Source: a phage. Taken from it: a DNA stretch of 61,121 bases. The position numbers and the translations under genes are program-made. This document shows positions 27,743 through 33,060 of the stretch, piece by piece (position 1 is the stretch's first letter; each line of letters begins with the position of its first letter). The notes under the pieces are model-generated. The model ran no database searches. It was not told where the DNA came from and was given only the letters and a program-made list of their open reading frames with translations. Where the stretch lies: the NCBI GenBank assembly GCA_012008225.1, contig GCA_012008225.1_4768.1; one strand, written 5' to 3'.

Positions 27743-28080
27743 TAGAACACTTCCTTAAACAAATCAAATTTAACATGCTCGTAGATTTTATTCAGCTGAG
27801 TCAGCTTACGAATAAACTCTTTACTGGTATTCTCGTCAATTGCACAGGTATCCGTCTGGATCTTCCATGTGTCGGAGCGCAAGCGAAGCAAGAATGAACC
27901 GTTCGGGTAAACCGTCTTCGCTTCTGGCATATAGTGCAGAATGCAGGATATCGTTCCTTCAGGTGGTATAAGAACAATATAAGTATCATTCACGTCGCTG
28001 TGACTAATAATCCAACCGCTCTGTAGTAAAGTATCGCGGAGCTGACAATACATTTTCGGAATAATAATATCTTTGGCCAT
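27742..28080 (-). CDS. Hypothetical protein
   Basis: 112 aa ORF, ATGA overlap with neighbours. Confidence 0.45.
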   Translation of the reverse strand: MAKDIIIPKMYCQLRDTLLQSGWIISHSDVNDTYIVLIPPEGTISCILHYMPEAKTVYPNGSFLLRLRSDTWKIQTDTCAIDENTSKEFIRKLTQLNKIYEHVKFDLFKEVF

Positions 28081-28445
28081 TATTGCACTTCCACAATTAA
28101 TAGTTCACCATGACGTTCACGAGCGAGATTATATAATTCTTGCTTCTGCCCAATACTTAATTCGCAGTCAAGGATTGCAATATCACAATGAAAGCCACTC
28201 GTACGAATAACAGTGTCTTCATATGAGTCTTTGCGATGAGAAACCAAACGAAGGTGAAAGCGATCAAACTGTACTACGGAAGACTCACGTGACAGTTGTA
28301 CACAACGAACGAATTCAGGATCTTCGCGCAACACTTCTTCAAGCTGCCGGCGATACTCATTAGTCGGGCACAAAGCAAAAGCGACGCGATCGTCTTTTAG
28401 CTGTGGTCTCAGCATAGACCAGGCTTTAACTATATTCTCGTTCAT
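28080..28445 (-). CDS. Hypothetical protein
   Basis: 121 aa ORF. Confidence 0.45.
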   Translation of the reverse strand: MNENIVKAWSMLRPQLKDDRVAFALCPTNEYRRQLEEVLREDPEFVRCVQLSRESSVVQFDRFHLRLVSHRKDSYEDTVIRTSGFHCDIAILDCELSIGQKQELYNLARERHGELLIVEVQ

Positions 28446-28817: not shown

Positions 28818-29167
28818 AGCGGATCTCCTCTCGAGTATTTACATACAGAACTAACTTTATACGAACAATATAGGACAGGTGAGGTGAGGATATAAAGTGT
28901 CTAGTGACGAGATAATCTACAAACGATGAATCCTTGGCAGAGATCTAAGAGCCGCCCCGCGGCGTTACTATAACGTCCCGTGATCGTCAGTGAGGTGATT
29001 GTTACGTCATGTGACTGTTGCGCGCTCTACTGTAACGTTGTTTATTATTACACGCGTTATTATTTTTAATAGATTAGTATGCTATCTATTACATGACTAT
29101 ACTATAACGTCCAGTATAATTGCGTCTGTTACTATCCACCTGCCCACTATGTGCTGTCTATGTACGT

Positions 29168-29239
29168 GCTACCTGGTATTTCCGGCGCGTGCTGTTACCT
29201 GGTATTTTCGACACGCTCGCGCTACCTGGTATTTCCGGC
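29168..29239. repeat. Three direct repeats GCTACCTGGTATTTCCGGC (middle copy GTTACCTGGTATTTTCGAC) at 26-27 bp spacing
   Basis: Copies begin at 29168, 29194 and 29221 in the divergent intergenic region; first and third are identical 19-mers. Confidence 0.7.
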
Positions 29240-29317
29240 ACACCATCTACCGTATAGTCCCGGATGTTATTATTATGAAGTACAACTAAAAAAGTTCTAA
29301 AATAATGCAGATAATAG

Positions 29318-29346
29318 TTGCATCTGATACCCCGTTGTCATACTAT
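29318..29346 (+). promoter_or_regulatory. Sigma70-like early promoter
   Basis: TTGCAT (29318-29323), 17 nt spacer, TACTAT (29341-29346); ~75 nt upstream of first early gene. Confidence 0.45.
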
Positions 29347-29421
29347 AACTGCGTAGGGTTAAGGGGGTTTTTAAGCGGGACACGGGTTCCGCGCCCGCCT
29401 CACCCGAAGGGAGATTGCATT

Positions 29422-29727
29422 ATGTCCATTATCTACTTACCGCGTTCCATGTCCCAATCTCAGATTACTAAGCGCATTATCGGCAAGCGCCTGCATCAGC
29501 TGGGCCTTACTGCGGAAAAGGTTGACGGGGATTGGGGTTTCGATGAGTATCTGGTAATGCTCCCGGGCAACGAAAAGTATTCCAGCACCGCGTTATATAT
29601 TCGCATTAACGAGGACGGCACTGTTAGCTCTTATAGCGTAATGTACGGTCGCCCAGTATGCCAAGCTAACAGCCTTTGGTCTGTGTTCTGCTTCATTACA
29701 ATGATAGCTAAAGCTATCCAACAATAA
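29422..29727 (+). CDS. Early protein, paralog family A (copy 1)
   Basis: ATG at 29422 after GGGAGA (ORF-track frame from 29305); shares ITxRIIGKR and downstream pattern with gene 30871-31128. Confidence 0.6.
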   Translation: MSIIYLPRSMSQSQITKRIIGKRLHQLGLTAEKVDGDWGFDEYLVMLPGNEKYSSTALYIRINEDGTVSSYSVMYGRPVCQANSLWSVFCFITMIAKAIQQ

Positions 29728-29803
29728 TAGCGTGCTAATGGTTGCCCATTGTTGCAGTGGGCTCCCACTAGCAATCCGCTAGAACAACATGGAGATAATT
29801 ACA

Positions 29804-30283
29804 ATGGCTACTATCACTCGCGTAGCAAAAGATGCTCGCTTCTTCACTAATATGTCTAACGCTCGCCGTGCCTTGAAAAAGGTTCTGGATGTGGACACTG
29901 CGACAGCTAACAGCTTTATTCACCAGGAGCCTCTCGAAGACGGTGGCCGCTACTGGTTCAGCGAAAGCGCGGTTAATAAAGCAGCTAACGATCTGGTTGA
30001 AGCTGATAAAGCGACTGTCGTGGAAGTGACCACACAACCTGCTCCAACCGCTCCCGCTAAAAGCAAAACACGCAGCGAAACGCGCAACGGGGTCCGTCGC
30101 CCAATTAAAGGTAAATGTGCAGACGTTTGGAACGCTCTGGATAATATTTTGCCTGATGGTGTGCCAACTATTGGTAACGTCCGTGACCTTGCGAAAGCTA
30201 ATGGTTGGAATATTAATAATGCAACGATTGAATTCTACGCATGGCGTAAATTCCACGGGCTCAATAATAAAGGGGGCAACTAA
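29804..30283 (+). CDS. Hypothetical early protein
   Basis: ATG at 29804 after GGAGA; 159 aa. Confidence 0.55.
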   Translation: MATITRVAKDARFFTNMSNARRALKKVLDVDTATANSFIHQEPLEDGGRYWFSESAVNKAANDLVEADKATVVEVTTQPAPTAPAKSKTRSETRNGVRRPIKGKCADVWNALDNILPDGVPTIGNVRDLAKANGWNINNATIEFYAWRKFHGLNNKGGN

Positions 30284-30285
30284 TT

Positions 30286-30360
30286 ATGTTCTACTTATTA
30301 GCGTTCTTGGTATTCGGAGCTCCAATAGTTGCGGGTCTGTATTATACGGAGGGCAAATAA
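30286..30360 (+). CDS. Candidate 24-aa hydrophobic micropeptide (MFYLLAFLVFGAPIVAGLYYTEGK)
   Basis: ATG at 30286, 8 nt after AGGGGG; not in ORF track (too short); ends at TAA 30358-30360. Confidence 0.3.
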   Translation: MFYLLAFLVFGAPIVAGLYYTEGK

Positions 30361-30361
30361 T

Positions 30362-30547
30362 ATGGAAACTATAGTTCTTTATTGTTGGGTTGACCTGGAC
30401 GAACACGAATATTGTGTGAATATTAACAACGGACCAGTCCCGGACGTAACTTTCGCATCCTATGACGAAATGGATGCGTATGTAAAAGGTTTCCGCGAGT
30501 GCGCTCGCATTGCAAATATTAACGTGACTGTAATTTTACCGGAGTGA
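30362..30547 (+). CDS. Hypothetical early protein
   Basis: ATG at 30362 after GGAGGG; 61 aa acidic protein. Confidence 0.5.
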   Translation: METIVLYCWVDLDEHEYCVNINNGPVPDVTFASYDEMDAYVKGFRECARIANINVTVILPE

Positions 30548-30552
30548 CTATC

Positions 30553-30798
30553 ATGGCCCAAGCTATTATCACCAAATTCGTGAACCCGACTTCCGCTCGC
30601 GCTCCGCGCGTAAAAGCAACAGGCTGGAACGGCTCTGTAACTATCACATGGCGTGACGATGTGGGTGTTTACGGCAACCACCGCGCCGCAGCGGAGGAGC
30701 TGATCAATAAGTTTAACGCTAAAGCGGGAGTTGAGTTTGAGATTATCTCCCACGGGGAGCTCCCGGATCAAAGTGGTTACGCGTTTATCGTTGCATGA
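30553..30798 (+). CDS. Early protein, paralog family B (copy 1)
   Basis: ATG at 30553 after GGAG; similar in pattern to gene 31158-31406 (M.AI..K...PT.S...R.KA.G ... AAA.EL ... G.LPD). Confidence 0.6.
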   Translation: MAQAIITKFVNPTSARAPRVKATGWNGSVTITWRDDVGVYGNHRAAAEELINKFNAKAGVEFEIISHGELPDQSGYAFIVA

Positions 30799-30870
30799 GT
30801 GACATATACATTGCCCATAGTAACAGTGGGCAATAATATGCACTTCGCATAGTTAACTGAGGAAATTATT

Positions 30871-31128
30871 ATGTCTACAATATTAAACCAGTCAATGATC
30901 ACCCGTCGCATTATCGGCAAACGTATAGCTAATCTTGCGACTATCACCGCAGAGCTGGAAACTTTCGGTAATAACGCGCGCAAATATCGCGTCCGTTGCA
31001 ATGGTCTTAACGTTTATTTAACTGTGTTCAACGACGGTAGAGTTCACGCGGAACTGCATACTATGGGCCGCCTGGTTGCAACAGCGTCCACGCTGGCGGG
31101 CTTCATCAACCTGTTAAAAAACTGCTAA
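30871..31128 (+). CDS. Early protein, paralog family A (copy 2)
   Basis: ATG at 30871 after GAGGA; MSTILNQSMITRRIIGKRIANL aligns with copy 1. Confidence 0.6.
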   Translation: MSTILNQSMITRRIIGKRIANLATITAELETFGNNARKYRVRCNGLNVYLTVFNDGRVHAELHTMGRLVATASTLAGFINLLKNC

Positions 31129-31157
31129 CATTTAAAATTGTAACGGAGATAACTAAT

Positions 31158-31406
31158 ATGAACGCTATCCATGTCAAAGCACTGGCACCGACTCAATCCA
31201 AAGGTATGCGCTTTAAAGCAGTCGGCCTCGGTATGTGCGCAATAACTGCAAACGACTACAACCTGAACGGTGAAGCAAACGCCGCTGCCGCTGCGCAGGA
31301 GTTACTCGATAACTACAACATGCAGAACAGGTCACTTCAACTTAAGATACTTGGAGTTGGTACGCTTCCAGATAATACCTGGGCTGTACTATTAACTTGT
31401 AAATAA
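31158..31406 (+). CDS. Early protein, paralog family B (copy 2)
   Basis: ATG at 31158 after ACGGAG; aligns with gene 30553-30798. Confidence 0.6.
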   Translation: MNAIHVKALAPTQSKGMRFKAVGLGMCAITANDYNLNGEANAAAAAQELLDNYNMQNRSLQLKILGVGTLPDNTWAVLLTCK

Positions 31407-31429
31407 GTTCTAACTGCATTATACAGTCC

Positions 31430-31466
31430 GCGCCCTGTTGAAGTCCAACGGGGCGCTTTCGTTTTG
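31430..31466 (+). terminator. Rho-independent terminator ending the early operon
   Basis: 11 bp stem GCGCCCTGTTG/CAACGGGGCGC (one G-U pair), loop AAGTC, then TTTCGTTTTG. Confidence 0.7.
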
Positions 31467-31469
31467 TAC

Positions 31470-32430
31470 CCGCACCACCTCCCGCGTTACCCTGCTGACC
31501 ACATGTTACTCACCCATAACTGCACCATTCGCGCTCTAAGAGCGTAACTCCTTCCTCCGTACATTACCATAGACTCCAAACTAGTCGCTTTATACGCCTT
31601 TACAGCGATCCGCTCCCTGCTTCCCTGTACGCGATTTTGCGGCATTTTCGCCCCTCACTGCCACCATTGCACTGATCCAACCGCTTTATCGCGCTACGCG
31701 CCCCATTTTCGCGGCTATTTTCGCTTTATGGGCTACCCGCTACACCGATCCCAGCCACCAAACCTCACCGAAATGCTCGCTTTCACCGAAAAATCCGACA
31801 TTTATACCATAAAATAGAATCGTTTTCGGGCTACAAAAATTCAGACTCAAAAATCCGATTCGCTCCGAAAGTCACTTCAACAAAAATCGCTTGCAATCTA
31901 GTTTTCTTTTGTGTTAGACCGCGTGCCCGCATTATGCGCGTGCGCGAGCTTGTGAGCGCCTCGTTGTTGCGCAACAAATATTTCTTATATTGCTCGTATA
32001 TTGTCGCTTAATATACGAAATGAAAGGAGGTAAGTGCATGAAAAATAAGGTAAAAATGTGTATGTGTGTGTATTTATATAAATTTTATAAAGATTTTTTA
32101 TTTTTGAGTTGTCTACTGACGACCCCACGAGACCCCTTTATAAATAATATAAATCACTATAAACCTCCCAATCCCCAAAATTTTCCCTTATTTTTCATAC
32201 ACTTCGCTTCGCCGTTTCGTATATTGCTGGATCTTTATAAATTGTGCATTTTTTCACCGATCTTTATAAATTTGCAAATTCTCACCTTCAGACTGTTGTA
32301 ATTTTTGCAAAAGCAAAAACTTTGCATATACAAAACACCGCAAAACATCACAGTTGCAAATAGCAAAAACTTTGCATAAATTAAAACTTGGCAACTGAAT
32401 TTCAAAATCAGTCGATTTATTATTATCAAG
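31470..32430. promoter_or_regulatory. ~1 kb noncoding repeat-rich region (candidate replication origin / regulatory hub)
   Basis: GC-rich part with reiterated short motifs (CGCTTTAT x3, ATTTTCGC x3, CACCGAAA x2, AAAATCCGA x2); perfect 14 bp palindrome TTGTTGCGCAACAA (31964-31977); AT-rich part with direct repeats GATCTTTATAAATT (32230, 32259) and AGCAAAAACTTTGCATA (32312, 32362). Confidence 0.4.
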
Positions 32431-32439
32431 GGTGAGGTT

Positions 32440-33060
32440 ATGCGCAATCGTAAAATTGAAATAACACACGCACACGTACAAGAAATGTTCGGTTACGACG
32501 AAGTGATGTACGCCAAAGCGGTAGCCATATTAGAACAGCACAAAGACAGCCTAAGTAATGTGGTCAAAACGTGGAAGGAGGCTGGCCTCGTGTTGCGGCC
32601 GAATGCGGTCAAGACGCTGGACGACGGGCGTAAATATATGTGCTGGGCAGCTCCGATGTTTGGGATGATGTTCACTATCGACATCTACTTCGCATACTGG
32701 TTGTTACACGCGGATTTTGTGATTCCGCTCGACAAGTACATGCACAGCAAAGGGTTCAATAGTTGCTTTGACGTGTGTCCTGACACGGAAGGCAACGGTG
32801 TTATGATCCTGGGCTTTAAGTGGGTGGGCGATAAGTGTGAAATAAGGCCGCTGCGATATCCGCGTGGTAAAGCGCGTCGTGCATATATCGAAGACGGTAT
32901 TGTTCATTGGTGCAATGTAACGAAGCGTCGAATGAGCACTGACCACATTGCGCATATCAAAGAGGGCCTCGTTAGACTTCAGACGAATAATAATGGTAAT
33001 GTGCAGTTACAGAAAGAATTGCAAGAACTCATTGAATACATTGATCAGTTCGGAGCGTGA
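32440..33060 (+). CDS. Hypothetical protein
   Basis: 206 aa; ATG at 32440 after GGTGAGG. Confidence 0.6.
   Translation: MRNRKIEITHAHVQEMFGYDEVMYAKAVAILEQHKDSLSNVVKTWKEAGLVLRPNAVKTLDDGRKYMCWAAPMFGMMFTIDIYFAYWLLHADFVIPLDKYMHSKGFNSCFDVCPDTEGNGVMILGFKWVGDKCEIRPLRYPRGKARRAYIEDGIVHWCNVTKRRMSTDHIAHIKEGLVRLQTNNNGNVQLQKELQELIEYIDQFGA

Follow-up and report, generated by a model that had tools for sequence, protein, structure and literature searches.

Here, we analyse an operon of seven small genes, predicted to be expressed early, in a window of 61,121 nucleotides of phage DNA (the whole stretch analysed; GenBank assembly GCA_012008225.1, contig GCA_012008225.1_4768.1), and compare it with the described phage systems to which it is closest. 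In phage T5 (Tequintavirus), the pre-early genes form a block that lies wholly within the direct terminal repeat, is present at both ends of the DNA, enters the cell first and is read by the host polymerase, giving mostly small proteins without known function. The Bacillus phage SPO1 possesses a host-takeover module, in which small early genes are clustered in the terminal redundancy and encode proteins without database matches. In T7, a member of the Autographiviridae, the class I early region (genes 0.3-1.3) occupies the position ahead of the RNA polymerase gene and is a polycistronic unit at the leading end that is transcribed by the host polymerase, encodes small host-directed proteins and yields an early mRNA with RNase III sites. 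The promoter-early stem-loop (PeSL) cassettes of T4-type phages consist of small variable early genes flanked by a repeated stem-loop.

The operon described here is likened to the T5 pre-early genes in its inferred place within a long direct terminal repeat, to the SPO1 module in the clustering of small early genes in a terminal redundancy, and to the T7 class I region in being a predicted leading-end polycistronic unit of small genes, one family of which occupies the same position in Autographiviridae; its extended intergenic hairpins (~20 bp, z about -3.7) recall the RNase III sites of T7 early mRNA. With PeSL cassettes it shares a repeated intergenic stem-loop, gene-by-gene gain and loss, and promoter-like hexamers around the second of its two hairpins. 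However, the T5 repeat is about 10 kb long, contains many genes rather than seven and is defined by two-step transfer and by A1, A2 and dmp, for which no homologues were found among the seven products (Pfam, NCBIfam and named PHROG families). SPO1 has 24 genes, many separate strong promoters, a 13-kb redundancy and a Gram-positive host, whereas the present operon has seven genes and one promoter and shows no sequence similarity to that module. Homologues of the T7 proteins Ocr, gp0.4 and gp0.7 are likewise missing here, and the T7 terminal repeat is only 160 bp long and non-coding. Unlike in PeSL cassettes, the stem-loop is present in only two copies, the hexamers are not kept at the first copy or in the distant locus L008 while the stem is, and there is no sequence relation. 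The operon is an ordinary kind of phage 'first-strike' cassette, and its genes have already been deposited as hypothetical proteins in more than 18 records; what is new is the tie between the operon and the terminal repeat, along with evidence of selection on all seven genes, including one for a peptide of 24 residues. New inhibitors of bacterial defence and host machinery come mainly from phage genes that act in the first minutes, and a compact seven-gene unit in a well-studied genus that is present in the BASEL collection provides a short list of genes to clone.

The window is the genome of a Nonagvirus (phage 9g-like, Queuovirinae), with a best DNA identity of 94%, and the phage is a 9g-like E. 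coli phage. The 2.2-kb operon region matched 18 phage records, all from Nonagvirus at 90-94% identity and none of them identical. On one side, minus-strand open reading frames (ORFs) extend from about 28817 down to 280, a block that corresponds in 9g to the late morphogenetic and lysis region (PMC4276943); on the other, plus-strand ORFs equivalent to the early DNA-metabolism region of 9g begin at 32440 (PMC4276943). Between these blocks, the operon is flanked by two unusually long non-coding stretches, 28818-29421 and 31467-32439. Its features are as follows (pI, isoelectric point; SL, stem-loop):

28949-32141: inferred direct terminal repeat (DTR) of the virion DNA, mapped from phage HdK1 and the published 9g end
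29318-29346, plus strand: sigma-70-type promoter, with -35 TTGCAT (29318-29323), a 17-nucleotide spacer and -10 TACTAT (29341-29346)
29356-29405, plus strand: structured hairpin in the 5′ untranslated region (5′ UTR) before the first gene, fold -29.9 kcal/mol, z = -2.2
29422-29727, plus strand: A1, 101 amino acids, family A (phrog_13865), N-terminal motif SQSQITKRIIGKR
29728-29781, plus strand: SL1, extended stem-loop after A1, core GCCCATTGTTGCAGTGGGC (29744-29762), fold -28.7 kcal/mol, z = -3.6
29804-30283, plus strand: g2, 159 amino acids, basic (pI 9.6), two domains, phrog_17772; conserved core gene of the cassette
30286-30360, plus strand: micro-ORF, 24 amino acids, MFYLLAFLVFGAPIVAGLYYTEGK
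30362-30547, plus strand: g4, 61 amino acids, pI 4.15, net charge -8.4, phrog_5461
30553-30798, plus strand: B1, 81 amino acids, family B (phrog_3199)
30797-30845, plus strand: SL2, extended stem-loop after B1 and directly upstream of A2, core GCCCATAGTAACAGTGGGC (30813-30831), fold -21.3 kcal/mol, z = -3.8
30871-31128, plus strand: A2, 85 amino acids, family A, basic (pI 10.5); apparently the ancestral copy, always followed by a B gene
31158-31406, plus strand: B2, 82 amino acids, family B; apparently the ancestral copy
31430-31466, plus strand: intrinsic terminator, with an 11-bp G+C-rich stem, a 5-nucleotide loop and a TTTCGTTTTG tail

The placement of the operon in a terminal repeat is drawn by homology from two relatives. 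The HdK1 record holds the whole operon twice, as two perfectly identical 3,367-bp terminal copies, and this repeat maps onto window positions 28949-30796 and 30796-32141 at 93% identity. Window position 28949 equals position 28,243 of the 9g record, which Kulikov et al. (2014) gave as the physical left end of 9g DNA (PMC4276943). According to the same paper, a 473-bp non-translated region with divergent promoters follows the left end in 9g (PMC4276943), and the distance from 28949 to the start of A1 at 29422 is likewise 473 bp. The two independent end determinations thus coincide to the base. The repeat would contain the whole operon together with non-coding DNA on both sides, 473 bp upstream and ~685 bp downstream, and the seven operon genes would be its sole genes in this phage. 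Because the operon falls within the terminal repeat, it would be carried on whichever DNA end enters first. For 9g, this side of the divergent promoter region was predicted to be the only one transcribable immediately after DNA entry (PMC4276943). The first-pass annotation, made from the sequence alone, had called the operon early, a label that finds indirect support in this prediction for 9g, in the DTR location and in the occurrence of family B in the class I early region of Autographiviridae.

The same annotation had placed seven genes between a promoter at 29318 and a terminator at 31430, and this holds, with all ORFs at their described positions on the plus strand and the signals at both ends consistent with one unit. 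Both promoter hexamers and their 17-nucleotide spacing are kept in six Nonagvirus relatives, the -10 hexamer being TATTAT in three of them; in JenP1, the spacer sequence has been exchanged through a 0.5-kb insertion and the spacing is still 17 nucleotides, while distant Klebsiella-type relatives have TAGACA-16-TACTAT. The conserved promoter sequence (TTGCAT-17-TAYTAT) stands at the predicted leading end. The 5′ UTR hairpin is nearly invariant in sequence among relatives, including FritzHoffmann, whose first gene differs. At the other end, the terminator hairpin (31430-31456) and its T tract were picked up by the terminator scan (fold z = -3.0), are annotated as a terminator in the HdK1 and SP8 records, and have counterparts at the same place in distant relatives. 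Internally, the operon is divided by the stem-loops into three modules, [A1] SL1 [g2-micro-g4-B1] SL2 [A2-B2], of which the middle one is tightly packed, with stops and starts 1-5 nucleotides apart. The motif GCCCAnnGnnnCAGTGGGC shared by the stem-loops occurs only twice in 61 kb, against 0.15 copies expected. Each stem-loop is a hairpin of ~20 bp interrupted by internal loops. All relatives retain both, and the distant loci L008, L012 and L015 retain SL2 directly ahead of their A gene, once with a different loop. The SL2 hairpin is embedded in a weak promoter-like TTGCCC-17-TAATAT.

All seven small genes are real and under purifying selection. A GGAG-type Shine-Dalgarno sequence precedes each of the seven ORFs, as read directly in the sequence, and comparison with relatives reveals an excess of substitutions at third codon positions in every one of them; in A1, for instance, the changed codons summed over pairwise comparisons comprise 98 synonymous and 21 non-synonymous ones. 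Two antisense ORFs on the minus strand (29768-30256 and 30460-30843), as well as flanking ORFs in the non-coding stretches, have no family matches and were taken as spurious.

The gene content around this set varies among relatives. A 54-residue ORF (phrog_18706) sits between B1 and SL2 in every examined relative except ChristophMerian. In the window, a clean deletion of ~170 bp at the junction 30796-30799 removes this ORF, and B1 ends on its stop codon. PD328, BRET and SP8 carry an extra, unrelated 88-residue ORF; neither this ORF, as compared in PD328 and BRET, nor the first genes of FritzHoffmann and the Klebsiella-type phages are members of family A or B.

From this evidence, we consider it reasonably probable that the operon is a single transcription unit inside a ~3.2-kb DTR, and that its seven selected small genes are the first to enter the cell and encode host-interaction products. 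The operon would then be present twice per virion DNA, giving a double dosage, and host RNA polymerase would read it in the first minutes to produce a polycistronic mRNA of ~2.1 kb, in which the SL1 and SL2 hairpins might be sites of processing or stabilisation, comparable to those of T7 early mRNA. The products would act as host-interaction factors before the replication and DNA-modification genes are expressed; the proposed effectors are two basic alpha/beta proteins (family A), two members of a large early family (family B), the basic two-domain g2, the very acidic g4 and the 24-residue peptide. Several points weigh against this account. The promoter hexamers agree with the consensus at only 7 of 12 positions, a weak match that lies below the threshold of the promoter scanner; SL1 and SL2 lack T tracts; the DTR of this phage is extrapolated from relatives, and the paper by Korf et al. 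gives no account of how the HdK1 repeat was determined; and literature searches for transcript, protein or phenotype data on any of the seven genes, in any phage, or for papers that mention the proteins at all, found nothing.

Database searches define the protein families of the operon. Its proteins match PHROGs 13865 (A), 3199 (B), 17772 (g2) and 5461 (g4) with E values from 1e-25 to 1e-107, as full-length members; all four PHROGs are annotated 'unknown function', and membership therefore gives no mechanism. Scans of the operon products against Pfam (E<=1) and NCBIfam gave no meaningful match, B1 showing only a sub-threshold hit to DUF2001 (E 0.12) and B2 none. A PADLOC scan of the six proteins other than the micro-ORF product found no defence-system match, and PDB sequence and profile searches with g2, A and B returned chance-level hits only (E>=0.3). 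Family A is small (18 clusters, 14 phage records), does not extend beyond Queuovirinae-like phages and has a nearly invariant N-terminal helix, SQSIITRRIIGKR. The AlphaFold model of A2 (predicted local distance difference test score, pLDDT, 76) has an alpha-beta5-alpha topology, for which the fold matches are generic only.

Family B is very large: a profile search at E<=1e-3 yielded 2,020 representatives of clusters formed at 50% identity, and members occur in 158 phage records with hosts including Escherichia, Salmonella, Pseudomonas and Klebsiella, among others. No plasmid match was found by tblastn with one family member as query, and a Pfam scan of 106 members (E<=0.01) revealed no informative domain fusion. 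The AlphaFold model of B1 (pLDDT 88.7) has a beta3-alpha-beta2 topology, and a structure search with it found no diagnostic structural neighbour. In Autographiviridae such as Ghunavirus PCMW57 and Aeromonas phage Aer_P220, family B belongs to the group of small genes that precede the RNA polymerase gene, and 21 of the 40 phage records listed have it within 7% of one of their ends. Family B represents a very large early-gene family of virulent phages without any description. A GenBank note assigns the B1 orthologue 9g_00036 to the 'TetR family'; this label finds no support, as TetR_N was matched neither by B1 and B2 (E<=1) nor by the 106 members (E<=0.01) and the modelled fold is not all-helical.

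The C-terminal domain of g2 (approximately residues 85-155) was detected by tblastn in 117 phage records, mainly siphoviruses of 57-62 kb, including Seuratvirus, Pantoea phage Vid5 and siphoviruses of Pseudomonas, Vibrio, Xanthomonas and Providencia, often with two occurrences in a record. The domain has the look of an early-region signature for this broad clade.

As for the function of the operon, host takeover or anti-defence is our best guess, based on position, the early-region habit of family B, allele turnover and analogy with T5, SPO1 and T7. A more specific scenario is possible and is put forward tentatively: family B might act early in infection by phages of all kinds, against a host target or defence system that is conserved, with the two diverged copies and alternative alleles of Nonagviruses broadening its specificity; A2 might be the partner of B2; and the peptide and g4 might also be effectors of the first minutes, the former acting, for example, on the membrane and the latter inhibiting restriction or RecBCD as a DNA mimic. 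The operon is of value for family B, which is unexplored, for the selected micropeptide and for the ease with which the system can be studied.

The products could instead serve the DNA end itself, either by protecting it from RecBCD and restriction, with g4 as a DNA mimic, or by completing DNA transfer in the manner of the T5 pre-early proteins A1 and A2. The operon does lie in the terminal repeat, adjoining the physical end, and T7 Ocr and gp5.9 are acidic inhibitors that g4 (61 residues, pI 4.15, net charge -8.4) is like in size and charge. Small, very acidic and predicted to be expressed first, g4 bears to Ocr and ArdA a resemblance only: neither it nor any other product matched the Pfam families Ocr or ArdA at E<=1, and no product showed homology to Ocr, ArdA, Gam, gp5.9 or the T5 proteins A1 and A2. 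There is also no report of two-step DNA transfer for these phages. ChristophMerian, which lacks both B1 and the 54-residue ORF, is the only Nonagvirus reported to be somewhat sensitive to EcoKI (BASEL paper, PMC8594841), which makes type I restriction a concrete candidate target; this is a weak lead, for the anti-defence reading as for this one, since the correlation is a single case of one phage with many other differences and confounders. Overall, we regard a dedicated DNA-end function as unlikely.

It is similarly improbable that the operon encodes transcription regulators for an early/late switch or for the pseudolysogeny-like state proposed for 9g, with g2 and/or B binding the divergent promoter region. 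The 'TetR' label and a similarity to MotA would point that way, but the latter reflects a generic alpha/beta fold with many equally good unrelated matches, and no helix-turn-helix family was matched by any of the seven proteins. In family B, neither TetR_N nor any other Pfam domain was found in the operon proteins (E<=1) or in the 106 members (E<=0.01), the predicted beta3-alpha-beta2 fold is not all-helical, and the family is widespread in phages of quite different regulatory layout.

The first-pass annotation had recognised two pairs of paralogues, and pairwise alignment bears this out: A1 and A2 share 34% identity over 77 residues (BLASTP E=3e-8), and B1 and B2 share 34% identity over 73 residues (E=1e-7). 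Each pair falls in a single PHROG. By hidden Markov model (HMM) search, PHROG 13865 matches A1 at 1.1e-60 over positions 1-101 of 101 and A2 at 7.8e-36 over 6-95 of 101, and PHROG 3199 matches B1 at 7.3e-28 and B2 at 5e-25, both on profile positions 1-80 of 181. The ITxRIIGKR core proposed for family A is seen in both copies as IT(K/R)RIIGKR. Between the two families there is no relationship (hhalign of A against B, probability 0.4%).

The further proposal, that the order A-...-B-A-B arose by tandem duplication of an A-B unit, so that A1/B1 and A2/B2 would be two copies of one two-gene module, did not hold up, and we consider it very unlikely. In its favour, both families are duplicated within the same operon, A2 and B2 are adjacent (and overlap in Klebsiella-type phages), and the SL1 and SL2 flanks, which are similar in FritzHoffmann, could serve as recombination substrates. 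However, three genes lie between A1 and B1, and the two are adjacent in no relative examined. The distant Klebsiella-type and metagenomic relatives, in which the order is x - g2 - (micro) - y - SL - A - B - terminator followed by ~1 kb of non-coding DNA, have a single adjacent A-B pair, which is orthologous to A2-B2 and comes after g2 and the micro-ORF. A2 shares 49-71% identity with the A genes of distant phages and only ~37% with A1, and A1 stands apart from all A2-type sequences. When 105 other family members are ranked by their closeness to B1, B2 comes 102nd, behind ~100 members from other phages; in the ranking for B2, B1 comes 15th. The comparison of copy number with related phages, which had been suggested as a check, shows that A1, A2 and B1 were each gained or lost one at a time: 9g and JenP1 lack A2, FritzHoffmann lacks A1 and ChristophMerian (locus L020, MZ501057.1) lacks B1.

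The distant single pair, the identity ranks and the independent losses all argue that the paralogy is old and that the copies behave as independent cassettes. Judging from these sequence comparisons, A2-B2 appears to be the ancestral adjacent pair, and the paralogues appear to be old, separately maintained lineages in a cassette whose genes are gained, lost or replaced by other alleles one by one. Both B1 and B2 exist in alternative alleles with ~65% protein identity in genomes that are otherwise ~93% identical (loci L001, L004, L006 and L021), which suggests allele replacement or diversifying selection, a pattern typical of host-interaction genes. Two misleading ideas, the tandem-duplication model and the GenBank 'TetR' note, are thereby corrected.

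The seventh gene had been described as a hidden 24-codon hydrophobic ORF with its own Shine-Dalgarno sequence. It was indeed missed by most annotations, but it is not entirely hidden, as it is annotated in two BASEL phages (bas20_0075 and bas19_0075). The peptide is 100% identical in seven genomes, and all nine variable nucleotide sites are third-position and synonymous (P~2e-6 for 9/9, given that 23% of random changes would be silent). The metagenomic relative L014 differs at 16 of 72 nucleotides, of which 12 are third positions, and its peptide shows three conservative replacements. Homologues of 22-25 residues directly follow g2 in L007, L008 and L012-L014; the micro-ORF is absent from L015 and is therefore dispensable in some contexts. 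The only-synonymous variation, together with the positional homologues, establishes the micro-ORF as a real gene selected for its peptide sequence. Residues 2-19 have a mean Kyte-Doolittle hydropathy of 2.05 and form a single hydrophobic segment of helix length with a conserved small-xxx-small pattern. A hydrophobic segment long enough to span a membrane and conserved as a peptide is what characterises single-helix membrane peptides such as type I toxins and regulatory small membrane proteins, and the product is probably of this membrane type.

That the micro-ORF is a mere translational coupling device or leader, carrying ribosomes from g2 to g4 without a functional peptide, is suggested by its start 2 nucleotides after the g2 stop, by the g4 start 1 nucleotide after its own stop, by the g4 Shine-Dalgarno sequence lying within it and by the overlap of its start with the g2 stop as TGATG in Klebsiella-type phages, but this has little probability in view of the zero non-synonymous changes at nine variable sites (16 changed codons summed over pairwise comparisons), the ~50% identity over 22 aligned residues in Klebsiella-type phages with hydrophobic and small-xxx-small patterns kept, and the persistence of the peptide in those phages although the downstream gene is not g4.

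A number of further observations concern the DNA around the operon. Within the DTR, between the DNA end and the operon promoter, three direct repeats of ~22 nucleotides (GCTACCTGGTATTTCCGGC) lie 26-27 nucleotides apart at 29165-29239; they are kept in five of six Nonagvirus relatives, JenP1 having diverged there, and could be candidate binding sites for a regulator or terminase. The nonamer TACTATAAC is present three times in the 600-bp divergent region, at 28966, 29100 and 29341, the first copy lying 17 nucleotides inside the inferred DNA end and the third forming the -10 region of the operon promoter. Another promoter-like site in this region, 29093-29120 (10/12), was not adopted as the operon promoter because it is less well conserved than the site at 29318; it may be a second promoter. 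At the opposite end of the operon, a minus-strand promoter-like TGGACT-18-TATAAT (10/12) at 31418-31447 overlaps the terminator and is directed into B2. The motif CTAACTGCATTATACAG, which contains a perfect minus-strand TATAAT, is conserved just 3′ of the B gene in distant relatives, and the minus-strand site may drive an antisense transcript.

The stretch 31467-32439 comprises ~1 kb of gene-free DNA 3′ of the terminator, with the inferred repeat boundary (32141) inside it, and a gap of 1.1-1.3 kb is found at the same place in all distant relatives. Past the boundary, the DNA is AT-rich (31% G+C), with many direct and inverted repeats. An Rfam scan of the whole window gave no match; the stretch is a possible origin, packaging site or promoter region. 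Genes for HNH homing endonucleases adjoin the operon in some relatives, lying 3′ of B2 in JenP1 (L006, 4448-4921) and, in HdK1 (L016, 3536-4015), directly outside the repeat within the divergent region. Across the divergent region from the operon, the minus-strand ORF at 28080-28445 encodes a 121-residue orthologue of 9g_00040, which bears the GenBank note 'potential sigma factor', and Klebsiella-phage records label a nearby 114-residue gene 'late transcriptional activator', both being database labels only.

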